A stretch of DNA of 64,000 nt from a virus (IMGVR_UViG_3300021400_000128:72916-136915); one strand, 5' to 3'; numbered from the stretch's first letter, positions 2,126 through 24,316 are shown. The notes: generated from the sequence alone by a model not told the origin. A program made the numbers and translations.

Positions 2126-2344
2126 CTAAAAACCGCTTGTAGTCTTTTTTTTATTTTTTATGACATAACCAGGATTATGAAACAATTCAGGATTACTTAA
2201 AAGTTCATTCATTAGTTTGTCAAGCGTCTCATATGCTTCTTTCACATTTTCTGGTGCATCATTATTCAATTTTCCCGTCTCCTCATCATAATAAGGCTTA
2301 ATAATCTTTAACAATGCTTTTGCTGTTTTCATTTTATCTTCCAT
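2126..2344 (-). CDS. Small protein downstream of MGG metallopeptidase (possible immunity partner)
   Basis: Coupled to the upstream gene; function inferred from position only. Confidence 0.55.
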   Translation of the reverse strand: MEDKMKTAKALLKIIKPYYDEETGKLNNDAPENVKEAYETLDKLMNELLSNPELFHNPGYVIKNKKKTTSGF

Positions 2345-2346
2345 TT

Positions 2347-3249
2347 TTATCCTCCATATCCTAATCTGTCAATTTCATCTAATAATACCTTGACATATGC
2401 CTTTGAAACTTCACTGGCATTGTCTTTATTAGTATATATATCTGCAAATGCTTCCGCAAATGCTTCTTTTGTTGGGCTGCCGCCATATGACTTCGCATCA
2501 CTGGCATACCCCGAGATTTCATGTCGGAAAGATGGTAAGGCTTTTTTATATCCTATTGATTTTTTTGCTTCCTTTTCCAGACGTTGTAAAGTTTTACTTT
2601 TTCTGATATCATCCATCATATTATAAGTATCAAAAAAACCTTTTTTCTTTGCATCTTTCAACATTCTGCCTAATAAGTAATTATGTATCGCATGACCGAA
2701 TTCATGTGCAACCACAGATTCAGGTGTCATATTTGGGATATCAAATCCTCTTTCAGCTCCTGAAAACAATTTTGGATCATCTACCTTTGAAAAATGTACG
2801 CCTAACCCAAAGGTTTGACGTGTTTCACCAGTAGCCCCACTGAATGTAGATTTAATTTCTGCGGCAGTTGTACCACCAGGATCAACGATGTAATGGAATC
2901 CATTTATAGCCCCCTGCATAAAGGGATATCTTTCTTCAAGTTCAGAAATGGTATTCAACGCCCGTTTTATCATTTGTAAATCATGGTTCTCCGTAAAACC
3001 CTTTGCAACATTTGTTTCGCCATATTTTTCAATCAACACAGAACGCAGATCTTCTTTTGTCTGCGCATCATTTATTTTATCCCAAAAAGACTTTTCTTTT
3101 GGCTGCTTTGCGGTTAACCGTTTTTGCCGCTCCACTTCTTTCGCTGCCTGTCTCTGCTGTTCAAGTTCATCGATTTCACTTTGAGGAGCCCCGTTCTGCA
3201 ATGCTCTTGCTATCTTTTTTGCTAACCTGTAGCTTGCTGATCCACCCAT
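2347..3249 (-). CDS. MGG-leader protein with zincin metallopeptidase domain
   Basis: Starts MGGSASYRLAKKIA; HEFGH...ISGYA...EAFAEAF motif. Confidence 0.75.
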   Translation of the reverse strand: MGGSASYRLAKKIARALQNGAPQSEIDELEQQRQAAKEVERQKRLTAKQPKEKSFWDKINDAQTKEDLRSVLIEKYGETNVAKGFTENHDLQMIKRALNTISELEERYPFMQGAINGFHYIVDPGGTTAAEIKSTFSGATGETRQTFGLGVHFSKVDDPKLFSGAERGFDIPNMTPESVVAHEFGHAIHNYLLGRMLKDAKKKGFFDTYNMMDDIRKSKTLQRLEKEAKKSIGYKKALPSFRHEISGYASDAKSYGGSPTKEAFAEAFADIYTNKDNASEVSKAYVKVLLDEIDRLGYGG

Positions 3250-3368
3250 GTCAACCATCCTTTAAAGCAAAAGAAGACTGAACATTGATCGCTCAGTCTT
3301 CTTAGGAATCTCGCTGATTATAATTATATCATGAGCGGTGATATATTTTACAGTTTATCTCATCATCC

Positions 3369-3767
3369 TCATCCTAATTCCCAGACATCTTCATCTGAGT
3401 CTCGGTACTCGAACATATCATCCGTAGGTTGTGTTCTGAGCTCCGGATTTTCTTCGATCTGCTTTATCACACCCCAGGCAAGGTCATCCAGAACGTCTTC
3501 ATAGTCATACCATGCCCGTGACGTATCGAAAAGAGCATTAGCGATATAATTGACCGTCCTGTCACCCATCGCCATCAGATAGCGTGCAGCGGGATTGCAC
3601 GTTTCCTTTCCATATTCGATTCCGACACGATCACCATCGTTGTTATAACGATAGATGATCCTGGAAGTAGCACGAACCATCTCCCCGGCAACGCTTTCCG
3701 CTTTTCCCTCGAAAGGAACCAATTCATCAAACAGTTGATTTAATTGATCCTCGTAAATGCTCATCAT
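3369..3767 (-). CDS. Conserved phage hypothetical protein
   Basis: LVPFEGKAESVAGEMVRA..RIIYRYNNDGD, a recurrent phage motif. Confidence 0.7.
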   Translation of the reverse strand: MMSIYEDQLNQLFDELVPFEGKAESVAGEMVRATSRIIYRYNNDGDRVGIEYGKETCNPAARYLMAMGDRTVNYIANALFDTSRAWYDYEDVLDDLAWGVIKQIEENPELRTQPTDDMFEYRDSDEDVWELG

Positions 3768-4059
3768 TTTTGACCTTCCTTTACAATTTGCTGGCCTCGT
3801 TTTATTGCTTTGACACTCCCCATGCCTAAAGGCAGGGGATTCTTAAGAAGGTTGCTAAGATAGCCTTATTCTTAAAGGGCTTGCCAATAGCCCGCTATCC
3901 AGTCTTTCAAAATTGAAATTCTGTTTACATTTCCGTTACCGCCTTATATCCCCATAGTTGAAGCGAGGGGTTTTACGGCTGTTTTCTGATAAAATCACCG
4001 TACCAGTTTGTTTCGAATTGAAAATCAAAATTCTTCAGCATTTGCTGTCGAAGTGTCAT
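3764..4059 (-). pseudogene. 38-aa ORF interrupted by the mini-element
   Basis: Removing 3810-3988 restores MTLRQQMLKNFDFQFETNWYGDFIAIKRGQQIVKEGQK*. Confidence 0.65.
3810..3988 (-). mobile_element. Non-autonomous IS605-type mini-element with a third omegaRNA-like scaffold
   Basis: Same right-end hairpin; left end CCCCATAGTTGAAGCGAGGGG; TAM-like TTTAT at 3989-3993. Confidence 0.85.
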
Positions 4060-4239
4060 GTCATTCTCCTCTCAGCAAACCGCCATCATCTGCTGCCAAA
4101 TGCACATTTTTTCGTTATCATCATAATCGGCAGCGTCCAAATCGTCATATACTTCGATCATGGCGTACTATTTTTCTTCTAAAGTGCTGATGGTGGACAA
4201 CTTGTTAAGATAGTTGGCGAAAATTGTGTTTGCGTTCAT

Positions 4240-4376
4240 AGGTAACCTCCGTGATTCAAAATTTATTATTTAATCAACTTACATTTATTATTATATGCGT
4301 TATTATATATTTGTCAATGTCTTCTTTTATTTTTATTACAATTAATCGTAAAGAAAAAACCGGGATATCCGGTTGT
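4240..4376 (-). promoter_or_regulatory. Terminator + early promoter cassette
   Basis: AACCGGGATATCCGGTT hairpin with T-tract on minus, then TTGACA (4312-4317)-16-TATAAT. Confidence 0.85.
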
Positions 4377-4380
4377 AATA

Positions 4381-5280
4381 TTATTTTGAATTATCGTATG
4401 TTACTTTAAATCCCGCTGATTCGATTTGTTGAATTGTCGCCGCATGTGATGGATTATTTTTCCATGTCTTTGGTACAGAGAAATGATCTATATCATTGAG
4501 TGTTACATCACCGTGGAATTGTAATTCAGCGTATTGGTATCCATAGCTGCCGGTGTCATATAATTGTTTTGCTTGTTCGTAAAAATAACGAGCTTCACCT
4601 TCAGTAATTCTATCCGGTTCACCCCATTCTGCACTATATTTTGAAATGATACGGGGATTTGACACCCAACTCGGATATAAAACATCATACAACGAATCTC
4701 CAAGGGTCATTGTTGTACGGCTCACCATTGTATCTTTTTTGAAGACAATATCCAAATTACCGTAAGATGCAGCAGAAACAGAATCAGGACTTCCAAGATA
4801 GCCGTATTTTTCATAATCAGCGGGAGCTAAGACACCATCATATTCAAATGCTGTTCGCGAAAAATAATCTCTTGCGTCGAGATCTTCTGCACCCATTGAT
4901 GTACCCGTCTCGAACTGATTCATAATTCTTCCACTGGATAAAATCTTTGCAACTGTACTTTCTTTTATTCTTCGGCGAAATTCAAGTTTCTCAACTGCTT
5001 TGCGTAAATATTCTTCTCCACGATCGATTAGTTTCTGTGCGTCTACGGGCGAGTTATCCCGTAAGTTCTTTGACTTCTCAATATGCCCTGTGAAATTCTT
5101 TAATAATTTTGGTAATTCTGTATTTACAGGATTATTCTTTTCTCGTAAATATTGCTCATATGCTTCTTTTGCTTGCTGCCGTACATAATCTTCATCGAAT
5201 TCAAAAATTTCATTTTCGTATTCTTTTCTTTTCTTTTCGATAAATCTTTTAACAAATCTGAATTTTGCACTTCCACCCAT
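4381..5280 (-). CDS. MGG-leader protein with DUF3626-like putative ADP-ribosyltransferase domain
   Basis: MGGSAKFRF start; NQFETGTS.G, YGYL, YG, TMTLGDS and YAELQFHG motifs. Confidence 0.6.
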   Translation of the reverse strand: MGGSAKFRFVKRFIEKKRKEYENEIFEFDEDYVRQQAKEAYEQYLREKNNPVNTELPKLLKNFTGHIEKSKNLRDNSPVDAQKLIDRGEEYLRKAVEKLEFRRRIKESTVAKILSSGRIMNQFETGTSMGAEDLDARDYFSRTAFEYDGVLAPADYEKYGYLGSPDSVSAASYGNLDIVFKKDTMVSRTTMTLGDSLYDVLYPSWVSNPRIISKYSAEWGEPDRITEGEARYFYEQAKQLYDTGSYGYQYAELQFHGDVTLNDIDHFSVPKTWKNNPSHAATIQQIESAGFKVTYDNSK

Positions 5281-5359
5281 GTGTTACCACCTTAAATAAA
5301 AAAAGAAGACTAAACTTTTTTAGCTTAGCCTTCTTAGGGTCCTGTAGCTGATGATTTAC

Positions 5360-5677
5360 TTATTTTCTTATTCTCTGCTCGTAAATTTTCTCTTCACGAT
5401 CAATTAATTTTTTGATATGCGACTTTACTTTATCCGGTACTGGAACATTTTTGTCACGGAGATCCTCTAATCCTTCCGTTTCCCATCCATCATCATACAC
5501 TCTGGCAATGTTAAGGAATGAATCTAAAACTCCACTCTCACCATTTCCGTAATAAGTAGTATGTTTATGTAATTTATCTTTATAATCCGGGAATTGTACA
5601 AGGTAGAAGTCGGAATATTCTTCATCACCAACTTCTTTCTTTTCACGTCCAATTACTTTCATCTTGATTTCTGCCAT
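5360..5677 (-). CDS. Hypothetical protein
   Basis: ORF with GAGG RBS. Confidence 0.6.
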   Translation of the reverse strand: MAEIKMKVIGREKKEVGDEEYSDFYLVQFPDYKDKLHKHTTYYGNGESGVLDSFLNIARVYDDGWETEGLEDLRDKNVPVPDKVKSHIKKLIDREEKIYEQRIRK

Positions 5678-5696
5678 ATTTACCTCGCTGATTTAA

Positions 5697-6074
5697 TTAT
5701 ACATCATCTGATTTACGATGGTTTGATAATTCTGTGGAAAAACCTTCTGGATATCGAGCTTTGAGCTTATCCACATTCATTTGCATGATTTCGTCAAGCT
5801 TCCACCCAAAAGAATGTGCAATCATGGCACAATACCAAAGTGTGTCTCCAAGCTCTTTTTTTGCGTGTTCTCTGTCAAGTTTCGCGCTATGGAATATCCA
5901 CTTTTTTATCATGTCATTGAGCTCTCCTACTTCACCGGAAAGACCAAGGCAGCCATTCAGAATACCACCAACGTCCAAAGTCGTGTCATTACAGTCCATT
6001 CAGAAGTTTAACCGTTCTGTAGCCTTGCCATCGTTAGTTCTCATTGCTAATTCTTGATATTCGTTTCCAGTCAT
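5697..6074 (-). pseudogene. MazG-like nucleotide pyrophosphohydrolase with in-frame TGA at 6000-6002
   Basis: MTGNEYQELAMRTNDGKATERLNF*MDC...GLSGEVGEL..KK...KELGD; intact paralog at 50618-50989. Confidence 0.75.
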
Positions 6075-6084
6075 ACATCTCTCC

Positions 6085-6759
6085 TCACATATGAATATTA
6101 ACACAAGTCAAATAATAATCACCTGGAATGCTGTCAAGTATTTTGTTGTATTCATCATTCCATTGTGTATTAAATTTTCCTTCTTGTTCGATCCATTCTC
6201 CATCTGGTTTCAATACCGCCCACGGAGTCCATGTAAAAAGAAATTCTGCAAACGTCCGCTTTTCTGGTGACCAATTAGGATTCGAGGAGCAATCAAGAAC
6301 ATGCTGCACCCATCTGCGCCAAATCAAAGGGAACTGTTTTCTCAGCTTTTCTTCTGGTGCCGCAAGGTCAATTCGTGGAACATCTTTGATCTGAATATAA
6401 TTGTTGGGCTGTTCGTACAGGCCACAACCTTCTTTAATTATGTAATAGTCCCATTTCGCATCGGGATTATTTGCAGAAATAGCATTACCTTCTTTATCGA
6501 TATCTTCATACAATTCCATTTTTAAACTGTAATAGCGAATCGTGCCGATATCATCTTTATCCAGTGCTTCAAAAAGCTCTCTTTTTCCTTGTTCCGATAA
6601 TAAATCTGAATATTTTCTTAATCGTTTTTTTACCTCTGGATATTCAGCGCAAATATATGGATCCACTTCTAAATCCTGATCGAATGGTTCCATGCACTCT
6701 GCTATCATCTTCAGGGTTGGTTTTTTCTCTGTGATAACCGCAACTTCTAAATGTCCCAT
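6085..6759 (-). CDS. Phage hypothetical protein
   Basis: NPDAKWDYY and AVLKPDGEW motifs common in phage proteins. Confidence 0.7.
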   Translation of the reverse strand: MGHLEVAVITEKKPTLKMIAECMEPFDQDLEVDPYICAEYPEVKKRLRKYSDLLSEQGKRELFEALDKDDIGTIRYYSLKMELYEDIDKEGNAISANNPDAKWDYYIIKEGCGLYEQPNNYIQIKDVPRIDLAAPEEKLRKQFPLIWRRWVQHVLDCSSNPNWSPEKRTFAEFLFTWTPWAVLKPDGEWIEQEGKFNTQWNDEYNKILDSIPGDYYLTCVNIHM

Positions 6760-6762
6760 CTC

Positions 6763-7937: not shown

Positions 7938-7986
7938 TACTTGTTTCCTTTTTTCTTACATAAAATAAAAATCCATTGCACTTGTC

Positions 7987-8316
7987 TTATTTTTCATTGT
8001 CAGCTCCGTTATAACTTCCGCAGTTCGGGCAGTACGAAAAATCTGTGAAGTAATACTGATACGGAGCGGTCATATACTTCCCACACACAGAACATCTTGC
8101 TGACTGCCAGACTGGAATTTCATAATCCGCATTGTCAAAAGTTTCCTTTTCCATCCACTTTCCTTTCTTCCGCTCTGGCTCTACGGATGGCAATGTTTGC
8201 ACCAGTTTTCTCACACCGCTGGCGGCACCCCCAAGGTCGCCATACAGGCCTCTTAATGTTTCTGCTCTCGAAGTCAATAAATTAATTATCGTTTGCCTAT
8301 CTATACAATCACTCAT
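7987..8316 (-). CDS. Zinc-ribbon hypothetical protein
   Basis: DCIDRQ...KGKW...CSVCG...YCPNCG. Confidence 0.7.
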   Translation of the reverse strand: MSDCIDRQTIINLLTSRAETLRGLYGDLGGAASGVRKLVQTLPSVEPERKKGKWMEKETFDNADYEIPVWQSARCSVCGKYMTAPYQYYFTDFSYCPNCGSYNGADNEK

Positions 8317-8491
8317 TCCAACTCCGATCTAACTTTGCACCGCAATGTGAACAATAAGAATCACAACTAAAAACTTTTTTCTTGCAATACTAAATTCTCT
8401 GGTATCTTCACTAATATATTCACCACACTCAAATAAATGTGTAAACATTATTTTTTTTTGCGCGTCTATTGCGTCCTGTCTGCCTATAAGG

Positions 8492-8851
8492 TCACTCATA
8501 ATTAGCTTTCTCTAAATCCATATATCCACATTTATCCATCATATCCGCTCCGCAGTGGTAACAATAGTAAAAATTGTGATTCCCGATATCTGAGTTTTCT
8601 AAAACTGCATGACATTCAGAGCACTCCCAACAATCTTCATCTTTTCGGCGTTGCCACCTTCCCTTCTTTCGATCTGCGGAAGCTAAATTATTAATTGCTT
8701 TTATCGCATCGTCCAGCCCTTTGTTGTACTGTGTGAACGGATTACCTTCACTAACATAACCGTTACTATTTCCTTTGTAGGCAGTCATGTAAACCTTCTC
8801 AAATTCGATTGCTTCAACAGCATCATTTCTATCAATCAAATCACTCATCAT
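8492..8851 (-). CDS. Zinc-ribbon hypothetical protein
   Basis: DLIDR...KGRW...CSECH...YCYHCGADM. Confidence 0.7.
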   Translation of the reverse strand: MMSDLIDRNDAVEAIEFEKVYMTAYKGNSNGYVSEGNPFTQYNKGLDDAIKAINNLASADRKKGRWQRRKDEDCWECSECHAVLENSDIGNHNFYYCYHCGADMMDKCGYMDLEKANYE

Positions 8852-9237
8852 TTACTTCTCCAAGGTTCTGGTAACGGCATCCATGCGAGTACATTCACAT
8901 TATGTGCGTCACAGTCACCATCATGCGCACACCACCATGCACTCTGATTCCAACTAATATACCCGACAGAGATAAATGAATTCTGGTTATATTTTTTATC
9001 TAATCTACGGATTGTCAACAGTACAAACTCTCCATCTTTCGGCAATGCTTCAGTAACAGAAATCCACTTCCGCTCCGGCTCTGCGGATGGCAAGGCTTTC
9101 AATGCTTCTACTGCTGGTTTTGCATCAAAACCTTCCGGGATGGAACAGCCATATGTTTCAATGTCTTCCGTTTCCAACCGATACATTGCATCTATCGCAT
9201 CCTGTCTCCGAATCAAATCACCATTCATACTGCACAT
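8848..9237 (-). CDS. DUF551-like protein
   Basis: WISVTEALP...VLAWMPLPEP. Confidence 0.7.
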   Translation of the reverse strand: MCSMNGDLIRRQDAIDAMYRLETEDIETYGCSIPEGFDAKPAVEALKALPSAEPERKWISVTEALPKDGEFVLLTIRRLDKKYNQNSFISVGYISWNQSAWWCAHDGDCDAHNVNVLAWMPLPEPWRSK

Positions 9238-13638: not shown

Positions 13639-14250
13639 TTAACCGATTATGTGGATACGTCCACACTTTGGGCACTTGCTGTAAACAGGCTGCTTAATCG
13701 GTGCCGATACATTCTCAGGATCGTTGGTCATCGGTTTGTTCATTTGTTGTGAAGTCTGCACAGTTCTTGCTTCATGTTCCTGGGCGGTTTCAGCTGGTGC
13801 ATCGTCATAGACTTCCGTCAGATATCCGGTATTGGTTGGAGCTGTTGTCTGCGGTTTGAAGGATGGCGCGAATCCGAACATTGCCATATCGAAGTTCATG
13901 CTTTCCAGTTCCCGTTTTTCTACTGCAAGTTTTTCGGCATCCCATGTAGCAAATTCTGCTGTCCGGTTATCAGCGATCCGGTATGCTCTGATCTGTTCAT
14001 CTGTCAGGTCATCCGCACGAACACAGGGAACGGTCTTCATATGGAGCTTTATCGCTGCCTTCAGTCGTGTATGTCCAGCAACGATCTCATTATTCGCGTC
14101 AATGACAATCGGCTGTTTGAATCCGAATTCTTTTATACTGTTTGCTACATAATTCACCGCAGCGTCATTTCTGCGTGGATTTTTGATATATCCGAACAAT
14201 TCATCTACCGGGATTTCTTCTATTTCCATCATTTCAGCCTCCGGAGCCAT
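13639..14250 (-). CDS. ParB-N/Srx domain protein
   Basis: NPRRND..V..VANSIKEFGFKQPIVID...IVAGHTRL...AYRIADN. Confidence 0.9.
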   Translation of the reverse strand: MAPEAEMMEIEEIPVDELFGYIKNPRRNDAAVNYVANSIKEFGFKQPIVIDANNEIVAGHTRLKAAIKLHMKTVPCVRADDLTDEQIRAYRIADNRTAEFATWDAEKLAVEKRELESMNFDMAMFGFAPSFKPQTTAPTNTGYLTEVYDDAPAETAQEHEARTVQTSQQMNKPMTNDPENVSAPIKQPVYSKCPKCGRIHIIG

Positions 14251-15326
14251 TGATCATATACTTGAGAGGATATCTGTGCCATCATGACAGGCGGAACGCT
14301 CATTCCGCAAATGTATTTTGGAGATTGGTTTAAGAAGTTATAATCTTCTGGAAATGTCTGCATGTGGATAATATCCGTATCACTGATATTTTTACCATCA
14401 TACATTCTCGCCATACTTCCTGAGGCTGCAAGTGTCGGAGCAACATCGTTATCCGCAATTACACCATATTGAAAGCTCGTTTCTTTTTGGTTATTGTTTT
14501 TCATAATAGAAGATATATCCTTATCGCCAGGTTTTCTAACCATCAGGCGCATTTTTGATATTGCGTTTTCATTAGCCCATTCTTTTCCCGATTCGCTCCG
14601 TATTTCTTTAAACAGGATCGGCGGTTCATTGAAGGATAATTTTAATTTCGGAAGGTCAATATCATTTCTATGAGCAATGAAGAACACTCTTTCACGTCTC
14701 TGCGGTACTCCCATTTTCGCGGCATTCAGTTTAAATAACTGCACTGTATATCCCGCTTCATGATAAGCTTTGATGATTTCATTTACGTATCCTTTGGCGT
14801 TTCCTGCAAGTAATCCTGTGACGTTCTCCGCAATACTGACCTTTGGCTTCAGCTGGTCGATCAGTTTGATAAACCAGAAGAATAGATCGTCTAACCGCTG
14901 CATTTTCTGACCTTCCCGGAATTGCTTTTCTACATTCCACCCTTCTTCACGTTTTCCCGCCTGACTGAAGACGCTGCAGGGCGGAGAACCGTCCAGAATG
15001 TCCAAATCATATAATTCAGCGGGCTTTTCTTTATCCAGAAAATCACGGATATCCATCAAAAACGGGTATTTTGGATGATGATTCACCTGATATACTTTCA
15101 TTACACTGGAATCGATCTCACAATTACCGAGTAATTCATATCCGGCTAATTTGTATCCCATAGAGCTCCCCCCCCCGCAAGAGAAACATGAAAAGACAGT
15201 ACAGCCGTTCTTTTTCACATTTGCAAGATCTGTAAGGTTCCATTTCCACGGAAATTTATGTTCAGTCATTGTACCGGAATCCGCAGTAAGGGCATTGCCG
15301 TTCAAATTGTTCGTCTGCATAGTCAT
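14229..15326 (-). CDS. DNA cytosine-C5 methyltransferase
   Basis: FSCGGGSSMG, GSPPC, ENV, PQRRERVF, GMSVPP. Confidence 0.9.
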   Translation of the reverse strand: MTMQTNNLNGNALTADSGTMTEHKFPWKWNLTDLANVKKNGCTVFSCFSCGGGSSMGYKLAGYELLGNCEIDSSVMKVYQVNHHPKYPFLMDIRDFLDKEKPAELYDLDILDGSPPCSVFSQAGKREEGWNVEKQFREGQKMQRLDDLFFWFIKLIDQLKPKVSIAENVTGLLAGNAKGYVNEIIKAYHEAGYTVQLFKLNAAKMGVPQRRERVFFIAHRNDIDLPKLKLSFNEPPILFKEIRSESGKEWANENAISKMRLMVRKPGDKDISSIMKNNNQKETSFQYGVIADNDVAPTLAASGSMARMYDGKNISDTDIIHMQTFPEDYNFLNQSPKYICGMSVPPVMMAQISSQVYDQWLRRLK

Positions 15327-15861
15327 CTAAGTCAATCTCCTCATTGTCGTTTATTTTACTGATTGGTTCTGTTGGTCTTGTATGGATCGGTATTTCTTCA
15401 TTGCTATCATATTCTGAATCATCGGAATATGTCTGATCGATTGGCAATGGTTCCGGGTCCTGAGTGATAATACCGAACCCAAAACTGTTCATATCAAAAC
15501 CAACGTTTTGAAGCTCTTTCATTTCGATACTGAGCTTTTCAAAGTCCCAACCGGATTGTTCCTTCACCTTGTTATCCGCTAATCTGTATGCTTTGATCTG
15601 CTCATCGGTAAGGTCATCTGCCATCACACATGGCACTGTAGTCAGTCCGAGTTTCTTTGCGGCAAGAAGACGGGTATGTCCTGCGACAATAACATAATCC
15701 TTATCTATTACGATAGGCTGCTTAAAACCAAATTCCTTGATTGACGCAGCAACATATTTCACCGCCGGAAGGTTGTTCCGTGGATTGTTTTCATACATTT
15801 TCAGTTTCTCAACCGGTATCTCTATTATTTCCATCAGCTTTTTCTCTTTCCATAAATCCAT
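15262..15861 (-). CDS. ParB-N/Srx domain protein
   Basis: NNPRNN...FGFKQPIVIDK..VIVAGHTR; C-terminal CPYCG. Confidence 0.9.
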   Translation of the reverse strand: MDLWKEKKLMEIIEIPVEKLKMYENNPRNNLPAVKYVAASIKEFGFKQPIVIDKDYVIVAGHTRLLAAKKLGLTTVPCVMADDLTDEQIKAYRLADNKVKEQSGWDFEKLSIEMKELQNVGFDMNSFGFGIITQDPEPLPIDQTYSDDSEYDSNEEIPIHTRPTEPISKINDNEEIDLDDYADEQFERQCPYCGFRYND

Positions 15862-16496
15862 GCAATAGGAATAAGCGTATAAGTGTCTTTTAGTGCTCTG
15901 ATACAGTTAACCATCGTCATTCCACTTGTACAAACATCATCAATAAAGATACAAACTGGTTTATTAGAGTGTCCGATTACCTGTATCACACCTCTGTCCT
16001 GTGTTACATCCGCGTATGTTGATCCTGATAAGTGTCTGTCTGCAAACATCTTGACGTATGGACAATTTAATTTCTCAGCAAGAACTTTCCCGACTTCGGA
16101 AATGAAATGTTTTTTTGTTTTGCTATGTCCTTGCGGAGCATTATAGACAAAGCAGTTATCGGTTTTATGAATCAATTGCCGGATCGTGAGTTCGAACTCA
16201 CTGGCAACCATATTCAGAGCTTCAGGTTCCTGTTCCGCTTTTACTCTCTTGAGCCATTTGACCTGTTCTTTTTCGCTGGTGTCCCAAGAGCGAATAGACA
16301 ACCAACGATAATCACCTTTTCTGTTAAATTTCGGAGCTAATGTTCCGATATTAACAGGCATGATTTTCAATTCATGGTCAACAGTATCAAATGCGCTGTA
16401 TGTACTGATTTTTTTCTTTGTACTTTCCGGAGATAACAAGCCATTATCAAATGAAAACACATCGAAGCTGAACCCAGCTCCTAAATCATTTCGCAT
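15834..16496 (-). CDS. Phosphoribosyltransferase-fold protein (ComF-like)
   Basis: IFIDDVCTSGMTM PRPP-binding loop. Confidence 0.7.
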   Translation of the reverse strand: MRNDLGAGFSFDVFSFDNGLLSPESTKKKISTYSAFDTVDHELKIMPVNIGTLAPKFNRKGDYRWLSIRSWDTSEKEQVKWLKRVKAEQEPEALNMVASEFELTIRQLIHKTDNCFVYNAPQGHSKTKKHFISEVGKVLAEKLNCPYVKMFADRHLSGSTYADVTQDRGVIQVIGHSNKPVCIFIDDVCTSGMTMVNCIRALKDTYTLIPIAWIYGKRKS

Positions 16497-17020
16497 TCGA
16501 TCCCCATGTTCGTTAACCGTTCGTAGGTTTCCCGCTGTTCATTTAGGCTCTTGCATTCAATCTGTACAATGAAGCGAGGATTACCTGATCCGGATGTTTC
16601 ATTATCATCCTCATCCTCTTCTTCATCGTCAGTATCATAATTCGGGAAAAACCCGAAGTCGGCGATGTCGAATTCCAACGGATCGAGAAGCATGAATTCT
16701 TGTTCCAGACGGTCATAATCCCAGGTGGACATTTCCGCTACTTTGTTATCTGCAAGACGAAAAGCGCGGATCTGGTCTTCTGAAAGGTCATCTGCCATGA
16801 TGCAAGGGACTTTTGCCATCTTTAACCGTCTGGCTGCCTTGTATCTGGTGTGCCCGCAGATGATCATGTTGTTCTTATCAATAATAATGGGTACTTTAAA
16901 ACCGAAATTCTGAATTGAATTTGCCACGTACTGGACTGCATCGGAGTTCTTTCGTGGGTTGTTTTCATACATTTGAAGGTCGTTGATGTCTTTATATACT
17001 ATCTGTAACTCATCTGCCAT
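16481..17020 (-). CDS. ParB-N/Srx domain protein
   Basis: NNPRKN...FGFKVPIIIDK..IICGHTRYKAA. Confidence 0.9.
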   Translation of the reverse strand: MADELQIVYKDINDLQMYENNPRKNSDAVQYVANSIQNFGFKVPIIIDKNNMIICGHTRYKAARRLKMAKVPCIMADDLSEDQIRAFRLADNKVAEMSTWDYDRLEQEFMLLDPLEFDIADFGFFPNYDTDDEEEDEDDNETSGSGNPRFIVQIECKSLNEQRETYERLTNMGIECEMI

Positions 17021-17265
17021 ATTCTCTCCTTACGTTTAAATAAAAAGTAGACACTTGTATGTACAAAGTGCCTTCTTAGGGTCTGATTATATTTTACCTT
17101 ATTTTATTATTCACATCGTTGTCATTTCATCCCATATATAGTGATATGGTATCCATCGTGTGGAAGTGTCGAATTCCGTCACAGGCTGAATCACGGGTAT
17201 CCGGTACTCACCTGTTCCAACGAACATCGCTTTTTCAAGATTTAATAATGGGAGCTGACTTTTCT

Positions 17266-17979
17266 TCATTTCTTCTTACCGAGCTTTTCCCGCTGTTTTC
17301 TTATCCGCTCATCATGTTTTTCCATATCTTCAACGTTGTATGTCTTTCCACCAAACAATTGATATCCTCGTTCTAACGGTATCACTTCATCCTTCAGCTC
17401 TTCTGGCACAATACCGTTAAACAATATCTGTGATGGGTTCAGTCGTTTCTTCATTTCTTCATAACCCATCCAGAAATTATCATAATAATCCTTCGTCTGC
17501 ATTGTCCCAACGGTTGACACACAGACCACCGAGTTTGTAGGTTCACCGTCGAAGCAGAATTGAAACGTCTGTGGCAATGCCCATGTGATCGTTGGGATAA
17601 TGTTCACCCCGTTCATTTGAAGATAGGCAGCTACCCAGTGTTTTCGGTAGTGATTCCACACCTGCATCGCCTTCGGCATATTGGTATATATCGAAAACTC
17701 AGGGGAACAGACATAGCGGTACTGTTTCAGACGATCAAGATACAGGTCAGGTGCACTCCAAAGACGTTCGAATTGATAATCATGAACGTGAAAATGGATA
17801 CCACGCTTAGATGGATCGTTCTTTTTGATATCACTTTGCATATAGTTGAATGGGATCCACTTTGTTGTTGTGTCGTATTCCTTCACTCTGCCTGCTATCA
17901 CAGGAATTCCATATTCACCGACACCATCAAACAGAGCTTTTTCCATATTTAGCAGTGGGACAATAAACTTTTTTGCCAT
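17266..17979 (-). CDS. DUF4417 protein
   Basis: GIHFHVHDYQFERLW..P..Y; SPEFS.Y..MP.A.Q.WNHYRKHW; IPTITW; CFDGEP. Confidence 0.85.
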   Translation of the reverse strand: MAKKFIVPLLNMEKALFDGVGEYGIPVIAGRVKEYDTTTKWIPFNYMQSDIKKNDPSKRGIHFHVHDYQFERLWSAPDLYLDRLKQYRYVCSPEFSIYTNMPKAMQVWNHYRKHWVAAYLQMNGVNIIPTITWALPQTFQFCFDGEPTNSVVCVSTVGTMQTKDYYDNFWMGYEEMKKRLNPSQILFNGIVPEELKDEVIPLERGYQLFGGKTYNVEDMEKHDERIRKQREKLGKKK

Positions 17980-17982
17980 GTG

Positions 17983-18549
17983 TCACCCCACGGAAGATTC
18001 ATAATCGTTCCTGACAGATGCGTCCCCCATCTCACATCTTGCCATTTTGTGAAATTCGTCTAATCCTTTGTCGCGGATACACTCCAGGAACTTGATAATC
18101 AGTGTATCAGTCTCCGGATGAAAATGTCTGCCTTTTCGCATTTTCTTATAGTGGATCATTGGTGATTCAGGTGTCCAGGCTTCTTTTTGATAGACCTTCC
18201 CGGCACCGATCCAGTCACAGATCATCTCTATGACATAGTGATATGGGATTTTGTTTGCAATCACACTTCCGTCTGCTTCAGTAAAATCTGTCCAAAATTC
18301 CCAATGATGAGGATTCGCTCCTTTGTGATGGAGCCATGCATAGCTGTAGCCGATGTCTTCCTTCTCTGCTTCAATCGGGCTTCGGTTCCCTTGAAAGTAT
18401 TTCGCCGAGGGTATGAACTCTGCAAAACTAAATTTTGAAAGATCATGTTTGATTCCCTGCCATGTGATACCACACGCTCTGCATTCCTTGAATACAACTT
18501 TTTTATGTCTGCAAACGGTTAGAAAATGTTTGATATAGGGATTGTTCAT
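17983..18549 (-). CDS. DUF5662 HD-like protein
   Basis: H...V..H; HDLSKFS; AWLHHKG.NPHHWE; EMICDW; start set to ATG 18549 after AGGAG. Confidence 0.8.
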   Translation of the reverse strand: MNNPYIKHFLTVCRHKKVVFKECRACGITWQGIKHDLSKFSFAEFIPSAKYFQGNRSPIEAEKEDIGYSYAWLHHKGANPHHWEFWTDFTEADGSVIANKIPYHYVIEMICDWIGAGKVYQKEAWTPESPMIHYKKMRKGRHFHPETDTLIIKFLECIRDKGLDEFHKMARCEMGDASVRNDYESSVG

Positions 18550-18628
18550 ATTACTCCTAATGTGTAAATAAGAAGGCACCTGTTAATTAAGGTGCCTTCT
18601 TAGGGTCTGTGTTTATTATAACAGAATA

Positions 18629-20923
18629 TTATTTAGCAAACTCCCGAATCTGGTTCAGCCCTATGTATTTCTTTCCACCACTAACCAAAACTGGAACGCT
18701 CTGGATATCGTATTTTTTGGCAAACTCAGTTGTAGCTTCATCCTTCACGACAATCTTTTGATAATCGATCCCAGCTTGCTTCAGTACATTCTCAGCCATG
18801 TTGCAATTTGGGCATGTCTCTGTTGAGAAAAGCATATTAACATCCTTCTTTTCCTTGTGAAAGTTAGGATCATATTCTTTTCGCTCTTTGAATTCCTGCA
18901 CCTTCCCATCATTCCAATTGCGCAGCGGACGATAATATCCCGTGATTCTGCTGTACACTTCGGTTTCTTTTCCACATTGTGGACATTGAGCAACTTCACC
19001 TGTCAAATATCCATGGTCAGGACAAATTGAATACGTCGGGGATAGTGTGTAATACGGGAGATGATAATTTTCCGCTATTTTCCTTACAAGCTGCGCCGCT
19101 GCTTTCCACCCGCTCAATCTCTCGCCGAGAAATACATGGAATACGGTTCCGGACGTGTAAAGCGTTTGCAGTTTATCCTGAATATCCAGTGCTTCGAACA
19201 CATCTTCAGTATAACCGACAGGAAGGTGAGATGAGTTTGTATAATAAGGTGTTCCGTCTGACGCTGTTATTATTTCCGGCCATCGTTCTTTATCATGCTT
19301 CGCAAGGCGATATGATGTTGATTCTGCTGGTGTCGCTTCAAGATTGAATAAATTTCCGTATTTTTCCTGATAATCTGAAAGACGTTCCCGCATATGATTT
19401 AGAACATTTTCTGCAAACTTCTGCGTTTCAGGATTTGTCAGATCTTTTTTCAACCACTTCGCATTCAGTCCCGCTTCATTCATACCAACCAAACCAATTG
19501 TAGAAAAATGATTGTTAAACGTTCCGAGATAGCGTTTTGCGTAAGGATAGAACCCTGCATCAAGATATTTTGTGAGGACTTTTCTCTTAATATCTAAAGA
19601 ACGGGCAGCAATATCCATCATTTTATCTAATCGCTTATAAAAGTCAGTTTCATCTTTCGCAAGAAAAGCGATGCGGGGAAGGTTGATGGTAACAACGCCG
19701 ATCGATCCAGTACTTTCTCCGGAGCCAAAGAATCCACCTGATTTTTTACGCAGTTCACGAAGATCAAGGCGCAACCGACAACACATCGACCTCACGTCTG
19801 TTGGTTCCATATCGCTGTTGATGTAATTAGAAAAATAAGGTGTTCCGTACTTGGCGGCCATTTCAAAAAGCAGACGATTGTTTTCAGACTCCGACCAATC
19901 AAAATCTTTCGTGATAGAGTACGTCGGAATTGGGTACTGTAATCCACGACCATTTGCATCACCTTCAATCATCACTTCGATGAATGCTTTGTTTACCATA
20001 TCAGCTTCTTTTTGGCAGTCGCCATATGTGAAATCCATCGGTTCCCCTCCGACCAAAGCAGGCTGGTCTTTCAGGTCAGTAGGAATTCTCCAGTCCAGCG
20101 TGATGTTAGTAAATGGAGCCTGTGAACCCCATCGGCTTGGCGTGTTTACCCCGAAGACAAAAGACTGAATGCAGTTTTTTACATCTTCATATTTCAGGTG
20201 ATCCGCTTTTACAAAAGGAGCTAAATATGTATCAAAAGAGGAAAATGCCTGTGCACCAGCCCATTCGTTTTGCATTATTCCAATAAAATTCACCATCTGA
20301 TTACATAGAGAGGATAGATGCCTCGCCGGAGCAGATGTGATTTTACCAGGAACACCGCCAAGTCCTTCCTGGATCAACTGTTTCAGCGACCATCCGGCAC
20401 AGTATGGAGCTAACATGGCAAGGTCGTGAATGTGAATATCAGCATTTCGGTGTGCATCACCGATTTCCTGATCGTAAATTTCACTCAGCCAGTAATTTGC
20501 CGTAATAGCTCCACTGTTGGAAAGAATCAGTCCGCCAATAGAATAAGTTATGGTCGAATTTTCTTTAACTCTCCAATCAGAACTATCAACATAACTGTTG
20601 ACCAATTCTTTGTAGTCAAGGAAAGTGCTTTTTAGATTTCGGATATTTTCTCGCTGTTTGCGATAAAGGATATAGGATTTCGCAACATCTGAATATCCGG
20701 CTTGACTAAGAATTGTTTCCACACTATCCTGAATATCTTCAACGTTAATCGTATTATTCTTCACCTTTGATTGGAAATCTGCCGTAACCTGTATTGCAAG
20801 CATTTCTAAAACATCTGGAAATACAGTTTTTTCTTCCGCAAGAAAGGCTTTTTCCATAGCGTGAATAACTTTTTGAATATCGAACTTAGCATGACTGCCA
20901 TTTCTCTTTATCACATCACACAT
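18629..20923 (-). CDS. nrdD: Anaerobic (class III) ribonucleoside-triphosphate reductase with ATP cone and C-terminal glutaredoxin-like domain
   Basis: VIKRNG ATP cone; IHIHDL; SMCCRL; YSRITGYYRP glycyl-radical motif; CPNC...IQSVP. Confidence 0.95.
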   Translation of the reverse strand: MCDVIKRNGSHAKFDIQKVIHAMEKAFLAEEKTVFPDVLEMLAIQVTADFQSKVKNNTINVEDIQDSVETILSQAGYSDVAKSYILYRKQRENIRNLKSTFLDYKELVNSYVDSSDWRVKENSTITYSIGGLILSNSGAITANYWLSEIYDQEIGDAHRNADIHIHDLAMLAPYCAGWSLKQLIQEGLGGVPGKITSAPARHLSSLCNQMVNFIGIMQNEWAGAQAFSSFDTYLAPFVKADHLKYEDVKNCIQSFVFGVNTPSRWGSQAPFTNITLDWRIPTDLKDQPALVGGEPMDFTYGDCQKEADMVNKAFIEVMIEGDANGRGLQYPIPTYSITKDFDWSESENNRLLFEMAAKYGTPYFSNYINSDMEPTDVRSMCCRLRLDLRELRKKSGGFFGSGESTGSIGVVTINLPRIAFLAKDETDFYKRLDKMMDIAARSLDIKRKVLTKYLDAGFYPYAKRYLGTFNNHFSTIGLVGMNEAGLNAKWLKKDLTNPETQKFAENVLNHMRERLSDYQEKYGNLFNLEATPAESTSYRLAKHDKERWPEIITASDGTPYYTNSSHLPVGYTEDVFEALDIQDKLQTLYTSGTVFHVFLGERLSGWKAAAQLVRKIAENYHLPYYTLSPTYSICPDHGYLTGEVAQCPQCGKETEVYSRITGYYRPLRNWNDGKVQEFKERKEYDPNFHKEKKDVNMLFSTETCPNCNMAENVLKQAGIDYQKIVVKDEATTEFAKKYDIQSVPVLVSGGKKYIGLNQIREFAK

Positions 20924-20939
20924 TTCTCTCTCCTCTTAT

Positions 20940-21614
20940 TTAACGCACCATTGTTTTTACATATTTATTTCCAATGGAACGATATTCTTTCATTTCCTCT
21001 GATGTCGGTGAATGCAGACCGCGTTGAAACACCTCCGTTGTATCCATGAAAGGCTGTAAATACCAGATAGTGGATCCTTGTAAATACCTTCCGGTTTCTT
21101 CGATATCCCTTTGGGAATGAAATTCTCTGACAACGGTCGTGCGAAATTCATAAGGAACACCACTACTACGGATAATTTCTATCGATTGCTGAATAAGATC
21201 GGTTTTCAGATTTTGGATTCCGGATGTTTTAGCGTATTTTTCAAAAGAGTTTTTTACATCCATTGCAATGTAATCAATGATATTTTGTGTTAGTATCTTT
21301 TGTAAAGTTTCAGGATTGCTTCCGTTCGTATCAAGTTTGATGGAATATCCAATCTGCTTGATTTCCTGCAAAAAAGGAATAATATCTTGATGTATTAAAG
21401 GTTCTCCACCTGTTACACATACACCATCTATTATTCCTTTGCGCTTTTGCAGATATTGAAAAACAGTTTCCGGATCAATTGATTCATCACCATTCACAAT
21501 CCCACTGTTATAACAAAATGGGCAGTGAAAATTACAACCTGTCGTAAATATTACGCAGGCTGTTTTATCCGGATAATTTAGCAAACTGAGCTTTTGGAAT
21601 CCGCCAATCTTCAT
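20940..21614 (-). CDS. nrdG: Anaerobic RNR activating radical-SAM enzyme
   Basis: CNFHCPFC, TGGEP, KLDTNGS, YEFRTT. Confidence 0.92.
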   Translation of the reverse strand: MKIGGFQKLSLLNYPDKTACVIFTTGCNFHCPFCYNSGIVNGDESIDPETVFQYLQKRKGIIDGVCVTGGEPLIHQDIIPFLQEIKQIGYSIKLDTNGSNPETLQKILTQNIIDYIAMDVKNSFEKYAKTSGIQNLKTDLIQQSIEIIRSSGVPYEFRTTVVREFHSQRDIEETGRYLQGSTIWYLQPFMDTTEVFQRGLHSPTSEEMKEYRSIGNKYVKTMVR

Positions 21615-21800
21615 TCTTTCGTCCTATAGCAAAAATAAAAGAAAGCACAATTCAATTACGAAATGTGCCTTCTTAGGGTCTGAGGTAATTATAACTGATT
21701 TTCTTTATGTGTTTTTTTTATTTTAATTGGCGATATCCTTGATGGAATATACTTATCATCTGTTTACTGAATTATCGCCGGATATATGAGCTTCGACATA

Positions 21801-22124
21801 TTACCTTTCCTGGTACTTCGGACATTTCTCATTATCGAAATATACCCCAGTGGGTTTTGTTTCATACTTTTCACATGATCCGGCAGTGTAGTCTGTTGTC
21901 TTACGACCGCTGAACATCTTTCCTGCAAATTTACACGTTCTGCAAGCCATGTTCTTTTGCTTTTCACGCTGACGCTCTGCTGATGCCGCCATAGCTTCAT
22001 CTTCTGAATAATAACGGAGCCATACGCTTTTCCTGCTGTCTGAAAGACTGTTAAATTCCTTCTTTTCTTCATCTGAAAGGTCATTCCAGATTTCATCCAA
22101 ATATTTTTTCTCACTATCTGTCAT
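21801..22124 (-). CDS. Small Cys-rich protein downstream of ART gene (possible immunity partner)
   Basis: CRTC...C..YE.KP..V.F....CPKY. Confidence 0.6.
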   Translation of the reverse strand: MTDSEKKYLDEIWNDLSDEEKKEFNSLSDSRKSVWLRYYSEDEAMAASAERQREKQKNMACRTCKFAGKMFSGRKTTDYTAGSCEKYETKPTGVYFDNEKCPKYQER

Positions 22125-22136
22125 TTTTCACCTTCT

Positions 22137-23033
22137 TTAAATTTTACTCCAATCAATTTCAGGGCGTTCAATAGTTTTTGCATCTTGTCCAACTATAGTA
22201 AACACGACTTGTGGAGTTCCATATCTACCACCAGTTCTGTTGATCGCAATCGGTTTCAGTTTATAACCTCTCTGTAAGATGATTTCAAATTCAGTTCCAT
22301 AATCAGATTGTTTTGAAACACCATCCCATCCTAAACCGCTTCCCATCCCATGAATACTAAAAGGTTCTGCGTAAATACCTTTTGATCCTTTCGGTACAAA
22401 AATCTTCATTTCCACGCCACTAAATCCACTTTCAGAAGTCGCACCTGTTGACATAAAGTTATTAACATCTATGATTTTACCTTGATCGATGGCTTCCTGA
22501 ACACCATCCAACATTGCTGGTATAGGCTGAGCAAGCATTAAACCAAACATTCTGTTCATATGTCGTGTTGATACTCCGCGCCGCACCCAGATATCTTCTG
22601 GAATCTCGGTTTTATCCAAAGCAGCTGTCAGCTGATTCACACGTTCCATTGTTCCATCGTAAAGGTATTCTGTAGGATCCAGTCTTCCACCTAATAATTT
22701 ATTCATTGAATCATAAGCACCACCGGTAAATTCATAAGCAGCATCTCTTTCATCATCTGTAAAGCTATTCCATGCTTTACCGGAGCTTTCCCGGAATTTA
22801 TCATCAACTTCTTGTTTGTCTTTAGTCCATATCGCATTATCTAATCGTTTTTGATCGTATGATTCACGGTATGGGCTTTGATTTTCTGAATTCTGCTGTC
22901 TTCTTTTTTCTCGTTCCGCTTCTTTTGCTGCTTGTCTCTTGCGTTCAAGATCATCAATTTCAGTCTGCGGAGCTCCATTCAGCCTTGCATTGGCTATTTT
23001 CTTTGCTAATCGATAACTTGCTGATCCACCCAT
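22137..23033 (-). CDS. MGG-leader protein with VIP2/Alt-like ADP-ribosyltransferase domain
   Basis: MGGSASYRLAKKIA start; R (VRRG), S-T (FMSTG) and E-x-E (TEFEIILQRG) catalytic motifs. Confidence 0.85.
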   Translation of the reverse strand: MGGSASYRLAKKIANARLNGAPQTEIDDLERKRQAAKEAEREKRRQQNSENQSPYRESYDQKRLDNAIWTKDKQEVDDKFRESSGKAWNSFTDDERDAAYEFTGGAYDSMNKLLGGRLDPTEYLYDGTMERVNQLTAALDKTEIPEDIWVRRGVSTRHMNRMFGLMLAQPIPAMLDGVQEAIDQGKIIDVNNFMSTGATSESGFSGVEMKIFVPKGSKGIYAEPFSIHGMGSGLGWDGVSKQSDYGTEFEIILQRGYKLKPIAINRTGGRYGTPQVVFTIVGQDAKTIERPEIDWSKI

Positions 23034-23118
23034 AGAAAAGACACCTCCTAATCAAGATGCCCTTTCTTAGAGCGCACATCTTTTTATTTGTTTACTATTA
23101 TTTTAACTCCGTACAATT

Positions 23119-23553
23119 TTATTTAGTTGTTTTTTTATATCCGGGCCATTCAGGAAGGTTTCCTAATTTCCTAATAAATCGTTCAGTTTTTTCATTCTGA
23201 ACTTTTAGATTATTTTCAATATCTTCATATTCTTTTTCATTGTAGCTAATACCATTATCACGAAGCAATTGAACAAATTCATTTACAGTCATGTTGTTTT
23301 CCTCTCGAACAGCTTTAATCTGTTCACCTGTCAGTAATCCGTGAAACAAGCGATTAGCAACAGTATATTTTCTATCTAAATCGCTACTGTCCACATTATA
23401 TCCGTCACCACATTCAGGACATTTCCAATAAATAACGGTTCCTGTTATAACATCGTTACCGATATAACCTTCTTGAATTTCAGAAACAAGTGTATGCATT
23501 GTGTATTCTTGACAATCTGAACAAAACATTTTTTTCTGTTCACCAATATTCAT
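23119..23553 (-). CDS. MqsA-like antitoxin (zinc ribbon + HTH)
   Basis: FCSDC...KCPECG...GLLTGEQIKAVRE. Confidence 0.7.
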   Translation of the reverse strand: MNIGEQKKMFCSDCQEYTMHTLVSEIQEGYIGNDVITGTVIYWKCPECGDGYNVDSSDLDRKYTVANRLFHGLLTGEQIKAVREENNMTVNEFVQLLRDNGISYNEKEYEDIENNLKVQNEKTERFIRKLGNLPEWPGYKKTTK

Positions 23554-23557
23554 CGTC

Positions 23558-24316
23558 TTATCCTCTCTGTTCATCTGTAGCACTGTTTCTCATCGGTGCT
23601 GTCCTGTGGAGACCGACTAAAACAGCATATGGCTTTCCATCGTTACTATGAAAAGGGTGCACTTTCACATAAGTCCTGATACTTTCACCGCTGTTATTTG
23701 TAACGAACGTCTCAAACTCCCATAAATAATCATTTTCTGGTATTCCATCTATTATAGGTGTCTGTCTTGCATCTAACACTCTCCTTAAATTTTCTGGAGT
23801 GAGTTGTGGCATTACCTGTTCTAATATTGCTTTATAATCTGGCATATCATTGTATTGTAAATAATTACGATTTTTTACTTTACCATCAAAAAACAAGAAT
23901 CCACCCTTTTCTGTTTCTATGTCTCCTGTAATTAGTCTGTTAACCGCATTGGTTTCAGGTGAGCCATTTCTATCTTCTGGAGACACTTTATCGTCATCAT
24001 TTAAATTATCAATTGCTAACATTCTTTGTAAGAATCCGACGACTTCCCTTCCGGTCTGTGGCAATGGAGTCATCGCTGCCCTGCCTGTAGCCGTCGGATT
24101 CTCGAATTTGTCTAATACACGGTTTTCCAGTGTCCGTAATATGTTTGTTCGCTGTTCTGCTATCGGCTCTGCCATATTTGCAAGAGCCATATGATCTTCA
24201 ATCGTTATATTGATATTATGAAAGCGATGATTGACAGGCTTCCCGTCTTTTCTGAAATAAATTCCGTTTCTTCTGTAATATCGTACCGCACCTGAATTGT
24301 CTCTGCCACCGCCCAT
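23558..24316 (-). CDS. MGG-leader protein with MqsR/RelE-like C-terminal domain
   Basis: MGGGRD start; KNRNYL...LTPEN...LWEF...TYVK...LVGLH; directly upstream of an MqsA-like gene. Confidence 0.55.
   Translation of the reverse strand: MGGGRDNSGAVRYYRRNGIYFRKDGKPVNHRFHNINITIEDHMALANMAEPIAEQRTNILRTLENRVLDKFENPTATGRAAMTPLPQTGREVVGFLQRMLAIDNLNDDDKVSPEDRNGSPETNAVNRLITGDIETEKGGFLFFDGKVKNRNYLQYNDMPDYKAILEQVMPQLTPENLRRVLDARQTPIIDGIPENDYLWEFETFVTNNSGESIRTYVKVHPFHSNDGKPYAVLVGLHRTAPMRNSATDEQRG

Follow-up and report, generated by a model that had tools for sequence, protein, structure and literature searches.

The rightmost 64 kb of a virus record that is complete at 136,915 bp and carries direct terminal repeats (IMGVR_UViG_3300021400_000128:72916-136915; this stretch of 64,000 nucleotides is called the window here, and positions are window positions unless given as genome positions) contains, on the minus strand that holds nearly all of its genes, four genes whose products start Met-Gly-Gly (MGG) and continue into different toxin-type domains: a zincin-like protein at 2347-3249, a protein of the ADP-ribosyltransferase (ART) superfamily at 4381-5280, a C3/VIP2-type ART at 22137-23033, and a protein with a putative MqsR/RelE fold at 23558-24316. 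A preliminary description of the window took these genes for members of a polymorphic effector family with a common N-terminal leader and swappable toxin domains. Independent sequences confirm such a family, in which a conserved N-terminal module precedes exchangeable toxin-type C-termini and the shuffling goes both ways. The genes belong to a 137-kb phage of the gut or rumen.

The Met-Gly-Gly genes and their cargo domains

The four genes in the window are real: all have an ATG-GGN-GGN start and a good Shine-Dalgarno (SD) site. Five further members lie just upstream of the window (genome starts 62092, 64612, 67055, 67533 and 72622), and the complete genome encodes nine MGG[S/G] proteins; MGG starts are found in 9 of 209 coding-strand open reading frames (ORFs), where 0.85 would be expected (P = 2.7e-7). 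Eleven such genes are present in a related phage, a 148-kb contig from a goat-jejunum metagenome-assembled genome (GTDB genomes) whose portal protein is 82% identical. The glycine codons of the start differ between genes, and across the family only Met-Gly-Gly itself never varies. As removal of methionine before glycine is established biochemistry, the mature proteins probably begin Gly-Gly.

The nine proteins carry two putative zincins, a C3-like ART, an ART of the SopF/DUF3626 fold, a putative MqsR-fold domain, a small alarmone synthetase, and three C-termini without an assigned cargo domain (MGG158, MGG236 and MGG365; an assignment of MGG365 as ART-PolyVal was rejected, as it had only an atlas lead of 0.89 and HMM (hidden Markov model) support was absent). 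The zincin-like protein of 2347-3249 (300 aa; a longer ORF to 3258 would add MVD) combines a leader of about residues 1-47 with HEFGH at residues 182-186 and an invariant E/D block downstream, in agreement with the HExxH zincin proposed for it; H185, E186, H189 and the E/D block are invariant in 12 sequences. The zincins score against the ATLF/lethal-factor family PF07737 at E 8e-4 to 4e-3, below the Pfam cut-off, and the PDB profile of the zincin reaches lethal factor only at E 0.31. A paralogue, zincin-277 (genome 71789-72622), has the invariant HEF[G/A]H and acidic block in common with 2347-3249. The R-S-E ART proposed at 22137-23033 (298 aa) is identified by PF03496 (E 1.6e-21; 77 bits vs. 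a cut-off of 23.4) and has the catalytic motifs R151/152, S195-T196 and E248-x-E250.

Two assignments rest on predicted structures. The protein of 4381-5280 (299 aa) had been called DUF3626-like, and the name holds at the level of fold, because the model (pLDDT (predicted local distance difference test) 86) best matches SopF (Foldseek top hit 7dn8, E 7.5e-7, probability 1.0, TM 0.5; DarT comes next) and Salmonella SopF carries DUF3626 (PMC6682159); at the level of family it does not, as no Pfam family matches at E <= 0.1. For the protein of 23558-24316 (252 aa), the proposed MqsR-like character of the C-terminal domain has moderate structural support: the model (pLDDT 79.5) places MqsR (3hi2_D) first among 48,161 chains (Z 6.4, root-mean-square deviation 2.8, 89/91 residues), followed by RelE, YafQ and CdiA toxins, and Z stays below 8; Foldseek gives no match for the model at E <= 0.001, and Pfam gives none. 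Outside the window, residues 106-263 of MGG283 (genome 61241-62092) match the small alarmone synthetase SaSAS (8vx3, E 8.8e-12) and, weakly, Tas1.

A small coupled gene accompanies three of the four MGG genes in the window, as the preliminary description had it, with one correction of identity. The zincin is followed by a gene for 72 aa (2126-2344, minus strand) that starts 2 nt past the zincin stop and is a candidate inhibitor or immunity protein; members of its family (63-72 aa, invariant D..APE..K..Y) occur in both phages next to MGG genes of the zincin type, three of which they follow directly. For the ART, the candidate antidote or partner is a gene for a Cys-rich protein of 107 aa (21801-22124, minus strand), starting 12 nt past the ART stop, rather than the frame 21764-22114 that overlaps it. 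The end of the MqsR-like gene is overlapped by a 154-aa gene (23119-23583, minus strand) with a putative zinc ribbon and helix-turn-helix, an MqsA-like architecture, which matches CpXC and HTH_19 only below cut-offs. No coupled gene follows 4381-5280. Two enzymes elsewhere may serve the same purpose: an ADP-ribosylglycohydrolase (26350-27138, minus strand), a candidate reversal enzyme for the phage's own ARTs, and an HD_4 hydrolase, a candidate alarmone antidote, encoded 0.4 kb upstream of MGG283.

Leader peptides and leader RNAs

The N-termini of 2347-3249 and 22137-23033 had been described as shared, and they are: 35 of 44 residues are identical (E 5e-19), while the rest of the two proteins has no match. 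This class-1 leader (MGGSASYRLAKKIA..GA.Q.EIDELE..RQ.A) is a helical segment of 44-47 aa; a divergent copy on 4381-5280 is modelled as two helices. The class-2 leader (MGGGRD..G..YRR.NG.Y.R.DGKP), found on 23558-24316, gives a beta-hairpin in a low-confidence model, and a class-3 leader, a related, longer form, is present on two proteins downstream of the portal; the leaders other than the helical one are of a predicted basic beta-hairpin type of about 25-65 aa. The family thus has at least three leader classes. An N-myristoylation-type reading (MGxxxS) was dropped, since the class-2 tags do not fit the motif and bacteria are not known to have an N-myristoylation enzyme.

Leaders and cargo domains are shuffled in both directions. 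A profile of the class-1 leader matches 37 clusters among 1.84 billion representatives, and the match starts at residue 1 in 35 of them; the two exceptions are a probable over-long start call and a weak internal repeat (P0084). The resulting catalogue confirms that the leader occurs with other C-terminal domains elsewhere: in metagenomes it heads ARTs, zincins, a Zeta toxin (1e-23), a protein with choline-binding repeats and about 20 C-termini unknown to Pfam. Conversely, zincin domains are found behind three leader types (class 1, class 2 and MGGSKW), with a sharp leader/zincin junction just before QPKEKSF, and the SopF-like domain of 4381-5280 occurs behind class-1, MGGN and class-2 leaders, M1, G2 and G3 being its only N-terminal invariants. 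The metagenomic homologues number 50-odd. Searches with the class-1 leader pattern gave three short contigs in JGI metagenomes and one 148-kb contig in the GTDB genomes, and no confirmed match in IMG/VR, where peptide patterns and an exact degenerate DNA pattern were used and from which records close to this genome may have been withheld. None of the 37 clusters has the class-1 leader inside a MuF or polyvalent protein, and this arrangement is essentially rejected. That the leader copies part of the scaffold or portal protein was likewise rejected, as HMMs of both leader classes match only MGG proteins in both phages.

The leader DNA is only 71-82% identical, with many synonymous changes, and the same codon is used at only 19 of 35 conserved residues. 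Since the Gly codons vary as well, selection acts on the leader peptide, not on a recently copied block of DNA. The exception P0084, a metagenomic protein of 352 aa with an N-terminal membrane helix, contains two internal motif copies that resemble the class-1 leader core (..Y.K.I.EA...GAS..EI..L..QR.AKI..), so this core may be a two-helix module of wider use.

The genes also have RNA leaders in front of them. The CTAAGAA motif that had been described as a leader of all four genes does lie 37-57 nt upstream of each, but it is not specific to the family: about 18 phage genes carry it, and the idea of a family-specific leader was rejected for this reason. A conserved hairpin (AGACCCUAAGAAGGC-loop-GCCUUCUU) with a U-tract behind it has CTAAGAA as its 5' arm, and the genes led by it include those for tape-measure, tail, scaffold and terminase proteins, NrdG and ParB, and the operon of a DUF4417 protein; it marks a regulon, not the MGG family. 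Two types of leader can be told apart. Type A (3250-3310, minus strand, in front of the zincin gene; the same element precedes the gene that starts at 5280) consists of the CCUAAGAAG hairpin, a U-tract and the SD site, and shows no pairing with the Gly codons. Type B (23034-23075, minus strand, GCGCUCUAAGAAAGGG...; sister copy 24317-24361) lacks the U-tract and precedes three toxin genes: those for the ART, the MqsR-like protein and zincin-277 (the last at L001:16624-16675). Its predicted hairpin sequesters the SD site, with an outer GCGCY stem that pairs with the Gly codons (z = -3.5 to -5.2). The modelled pairing suggests that type-B leaders gate the translation of just these three genes.

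Head module, MuF and DUF4417

The order of genes in the head module is terminase, MGG158, MGG236, portal, MGG365, four small genes (among them that of the HD hydrolase), MGG283, a scaffold-like gene and major capsid. Four MGG genes thus flank the portal, with MGG158 and MGG236 upstream, MGG365 directly downstream and MGG283 farther on. The portal is of the SPP1-like Firmicutes type, and its nearest cultured relatives infect Firmicutes. In phages with related portals, a canonical MuF protein of 556-632 aa directly follows the portal, in the position held here by MGG365. The MuF domain itself is absent, as had been stated: a six-frame search of the whole genome gives no PF04233 match at E <= 1, the control genomes being positive, and Pfam scans of all nine MGG proteins found no MuF domain. 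Two ORFs for the terminase large subunit (TerL; 223 aa and 439 aa, genome 67649-71528) both match the N-terminal ATPase part, and an IS200/605 TnpA and TnpB pair stands between them; TerL is either split or duplicated. A Prp-peptidase-like match at genome 72679-72813, upstream of zincin-277, is below the cut-off (E 0.003), has three TGA interruptions and is probably noise.

A second association is with DUF4417. The window encodes a DUF4417 protein (17266-17979, minus strand; PF14386, E 1.3e-51 to 3e-50; invariant WNHYRKHW block), which we consider a candidate partner of the Gly-Gly tag. Its operon begins with a DUF5662 gene (17983-18579, minus strand) behind a CTAAGAA hairpin leader at 18603, and it is adjoined by a ParB_N-domain gene (16481-17020, minus strand); ParB_N and DUF4417 are fused in other phages. 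The 148-kb relative has two DUF4417 copies. DUF4417 has an invariant core rich in His, Asp and Glu, and its invariant residues include H62, D67, H110, H114 and E146; it gives no sequence match in the PDB and has no model in the atlas. The wider cluster (13639-18579) combines DUF4417 with three ParB_N-domain genes, a DNA methyltransferase gene, a phosphoribosyltransferase-like gene and DUF5662, and may be a DNA-modification or anti-restriction block.

In other phages, DUF4417 and MGG genes are mostly adjacent. A search of IMG/VR with this DUF4417 protein found 34 loci at 39-50% identity, and 31 of the 34 have an MGG-start ORF (at least 80 aa, on the same strand, within 2.5 kb), usually immediately downstream; as one metagenome contributed many nearly identical loci, the independent cases come closer to a dozen. 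The tagged gene usually precedes the terminase. None of the MGG ORFs lies on the opposite strand, and 35 of the 39 beside DUF4417 start MGGRG. Homologues of DUF4417 are present in 506 cultured phage records, and in two of four cultured phages read (DO134P1 and Gail) an MGGRG-tagged gene stands beside it. In Dorea phage DO134P1, an MGGRGSASG gene directly follows DUF4417 and precedes TerS/TerL. In mycobacteriophage Gail the order is the same: gp1 is a DUF4417 protein, gp2 joins MGGRGSAGG through a poly-Gly linker to a Tox-PL1-like domain, and gp3 bears the annotation "immunity protein". The MuF protein of Acutalibacter phage Fontainebleau ends in the Tox-PL1-like motif found in gp2, which links the tag and MuF through a common pool of cargo. 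Streptococcus phage IPP48 encodes a ParB-DUF4417 fusion followed by gp29, whose L27/Prp-type leader ends just before GGGRG; this suggests that a free Gly-Gly N-terminus is what matters. Two cases are less clear. Whirlwind gp116 starts MGRGR. In mycobacteriophage L5, a glycine-rich stretch lies in another frame between genes 1 (DUF4417) and 2, and a clean MGG start was not found. The C-terminus of L5 gp2 shows, by eye, T.T.GDSL and E.Q.HG motifs as in the SopF-like family (the intergenic stretch is L049:1101-1305), and the gene-2 start of 1993 may be mistaken, or there may be a frameshift in the old sequence. In the searchable literature, mentions of DUF4417 do not concern tags, nothing relevant is returned for MGGRG, and no description of a DUF4417/tag pairing was found.

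No close cultured relative of the phage was found by megablast of both MGG gene clusters or by tblastn of the zincin against 50,697 phage records. Its other genes include those for an anaerobic ribonucleotide reductase and its activase, a methyltransferase, ParB proteins and TnpB elements; TnpB-type transposase genes lie at 24403-25599, directly upstream of the MqsR-like MGG gene, and at 52249-53379. A pentapeptide-repeat protein is encoded at 451-909 (PF00805, 2.8e-11), a fold that serves elsewhere as a DNA mimic. A second set of paralogues, at least six small genes in the regions 7987-9237, 40888-41115 and 58265-58654, begins M(x)SDLI(D/G/S)R(Q/N/K)... on otherwise short and different proteins. 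Rfam has no match in window positions 1-30000, and a small RNA at 60379-60520 has no link that we could see to the MGG family.

Possible roles of the Gly-Gly start

Phage effectors with a constant N-terminal module are known from the MuF toxins of temperate phages, in which variable metallopeptidase, ART, RelA-like and RNase domains make up the C-terminus (Jamet et al. 2017, PMC5576092; Zhang et al. 2012, PMC3482391). The preliminary description had called the C-termini found here typical of MuF toxins, and rightly so: metallopeptidase, ART and RelA-like classes have all been found fused to MuF (PMC5576092; PMC3482391). The MGG family resembles MuF toxins also in having small ORFs downstream of some of its genes and genes beside the portal and terminase, and in that delivery with DNA is proposed for both. 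It differs from them in several respects: the constant part is Met-Gly-Gly with a leader of 25-65 aa and the genome has no MuF domain; each genome has 9-11 separate single-domain genes, not one long fusion; the leaders themselves are swappable; and a DUF4417 gene co-occurs. Polyvalent proteins of phages and conjugative elements, predicted early-phase effectors that are delivered with DNA, include lethal-factor-like zincin, ART, RelA/SpoT and RNase domains, with 2-15 domains in one giant polypeptide for which cleavage by the zincin has been proposed (Iyer et al. 2017; PMC5512222). The MGG family shares this vocabulary of domains and the predicted role, but each of its domains has its own gene and its own tag.

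The capsid-targeting sequence of phage T4 is a short N-terminal peptide on unrelated proteins that are packed into the head and injected (internal proteins and Alt), among them an ADP-ribosyltransferase, and it is cut off by the gp21 head protease at L/I-x-E. The MGG leaders are likewise short N-terminal peptides on unrelated proteins that would be packed into the head; unlike the T4 sequence, to which they show no similarity, they have an invariant N-terminal Gly-Gly, and no S77, S78 or ClpP protease was found. SPP1 gp7 is a portal-bound minor head protein. The setting is similar here, with an SPP1-like portal, a cargo gene directly after the portal gene and no head protease found; MGG365, however, has no similarity to gp7 or MuF. 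The Prp protease processes the N-termini of ribosomal protein L27 and of the capsid and scaffold of S. aureus phage 80alpha. Cleavage of the Prp-type leader in IPP48 would yield the same Gly-Gly N-terminus as removal of methionine would here, where the proteins start directly with MGG. Packaging of Alt is cited in PMC5512222, which also names SPP1 gp7 a head component.

We propose that the MGG family is a MuF-independent polymorphic effector system, and that its exposed Gly-Gly tag directs loading into the virion or handling by DUF4417, a proposal that we judge evenly balanced between right and wrong. Loading followed by ejection is the best-supported function, with about as much to be said for it as against it; it is favored by the positions of the genes around the portal, the MuF-type cargo, the lack of MuF, the candidate antidote genes, a regulon in common with virion genes, and DUF4417/tag pairs close to the terminase in other phages. 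In the mechanism that we envisage, each effector gene would encode the invariant Met-Gly-Gly start, one interchangeable leader and a swappable enzyme domain that attacks host processes (a zincin protease, two kinds of ART, an RNase of the RelE/MqsR type or an alarmone synthetase, and in relatives a Zeta kinase). The effectors would be made together with the virion proteins and kept harmless by the co-encoded antidotes: the ADP-ribosylglycohydrolase, the HD_4 alarmone hydrolase, the MqsA-like protein and the small inhibitor-like partners. The tag and leader would act as an address label and so do what elsewhere falls to the MuF domain or the capsid-targeting sequence of T4; the free Gly-Gly end would be recognized, probably with the involvement of the DUF4417 protein, and the effectors would enter the head close to the portal and be carried in with the DNA when the next cell is infected. 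The preliminary description had also offered a conjugation tag, which is unsupported because the genome is that of a complete tailed phage.

Several observations weigh against virion loading through the tag. Five of the nine MGG genes lie outside the head module, and CTAAGAA also precedes the NrdG and ParB genes, so that "late" timing of the regulon is not established. The leader HMMs detect no leader-like segment in the scaffold, the portal or any other phage protein. Head proteases of the S77, S78 and ClpP types (PF03420, PF04586 and PF00574) are absent at E <= 1, although a divergent one is possible, and a T4-style removal of the leader is therefore unsupported. As to DUF4417, the nearest MGG gene in this phage (22137-23033) is about 4.2 kb away and not adjacent, and the tags are MGGGRD, MGGSRD and MGGSAxYR, which keep M-G-G and a nearby Arg and not the GRG core of the common MGGRG; the independent loci elsewhere are also fewer than their count would suggest.

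The same start might instead label a substrate: DUF4417 would modify, process or couple the free N-terminal glycine and so control toxin activity; inside an infected cell or a lysogen, the toxins might be activated, neutralized or anchored in this way, within a module for toxin/immunity or exclusion. The tight and widespread adjacency to DUF4417, the invariant His/Asp/Glu-rich core of that protein, the apparent need for a free glycine (exposed by removal of methionine or, in IPP48, apparently through the L27/Prp-type leader) and the tightly gated expression suggested by type-B leaders, which sequester the SD site and start codon of three toxins, all speak for such a role. However, DUF4417 has no fold or catalytic assignment, its fusion to or adjacency with ParB_N suggests work on DNA rather than on protein, and the phage pairs usually stand beside the terminase or portal genes, in a region that encodes packaged proteins; we regard a substrate label as possible and rather unlikely. 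It does not exclude packaging, and the two readings are compatible. In a more specific form, which we hold to be equally doubtful, the free Gly-Gly end would be the substrate of DUF4417 as an undescribed enzyme, often fused to a ParB-type DNA clamp domain, that couples the effectors to phage DNA or to a head component, or modifies them.

It is improbable that the shared start plays no part in trafficking and serves as a handle for recombination and a cassette for expression (leader RNA, SD site and first codons), by which the phage would swap auxiliary genes while retaining the leader as a generic module for solubility or nucleic-acid binding. The RNA elements conserved upstream and the sharpness of the leader/domain junctions do recall the borders of a cassette, and the Gly codons pair with GCGCY in type-B leaders; yet no such pairing occurs in type A, the many synonymous differences in the leader DNA indicate conservation of the peptide, and MGG persists before three unrelated leader classes and, in distant phages, behind upstream DNA that is unrelated. 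An export or release signal, by which the toxins would leave the producer at lysis or through host secretion and hit neighboring bacteria, a route suggested for certain MuF toxins of prophages, is the least credible of these explanations and very improbable. The pairs of toxin and immunity-like genes resemble interbacterial polymorphic toxins (PMC3482391), and an integrase-like gene and repressor-like genes in the phage (matched in their N-termini only) suggest a temperate lifestyle; the leaders, however, are polar helices or basic hairpins without a hydrophobic signal peptide, WXG/LXG, Rhs or another secretion domain, and no receptor-binding or translocation module for entry into a target cell is present.

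In conclusion, as the MGG-tagged toxins occur without MuF and with DUF4417, we infer that they represent an undescribed way of handling injected effectors, probably of loading them into the virion. Most known effectors delivered by phages are MuF fusions, T4 internal proteins or giant polyvalent proteins; in this family, the address label would be reduced to a Gly-Gly start and a short swappable leader, with 9-11 separately tagged enzymes per phage. If the tag directs loading, it would provide a simple criterion by which injected proteins for host takeover and anti-defence could be found in the genomes of uncultured phages, explain the common unannotated pair of DUF4417 followed by an MGGRG protein (DO134P1 and Gail, with variants in L5, Whirlwind and IPP48), offer a small peptide tag for studying the loading of cargo into phage particles, and give DUF4417 its first functional context. 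If the free Gly-Gly end is moreover the substrate of DUF4417, any tagged protein would travel with the genome, and the enzyme and tag would form a loading system common to hundreds of phages, the L5-type mycobacteriophages with their gene 1/2 region at the left genome end among them.

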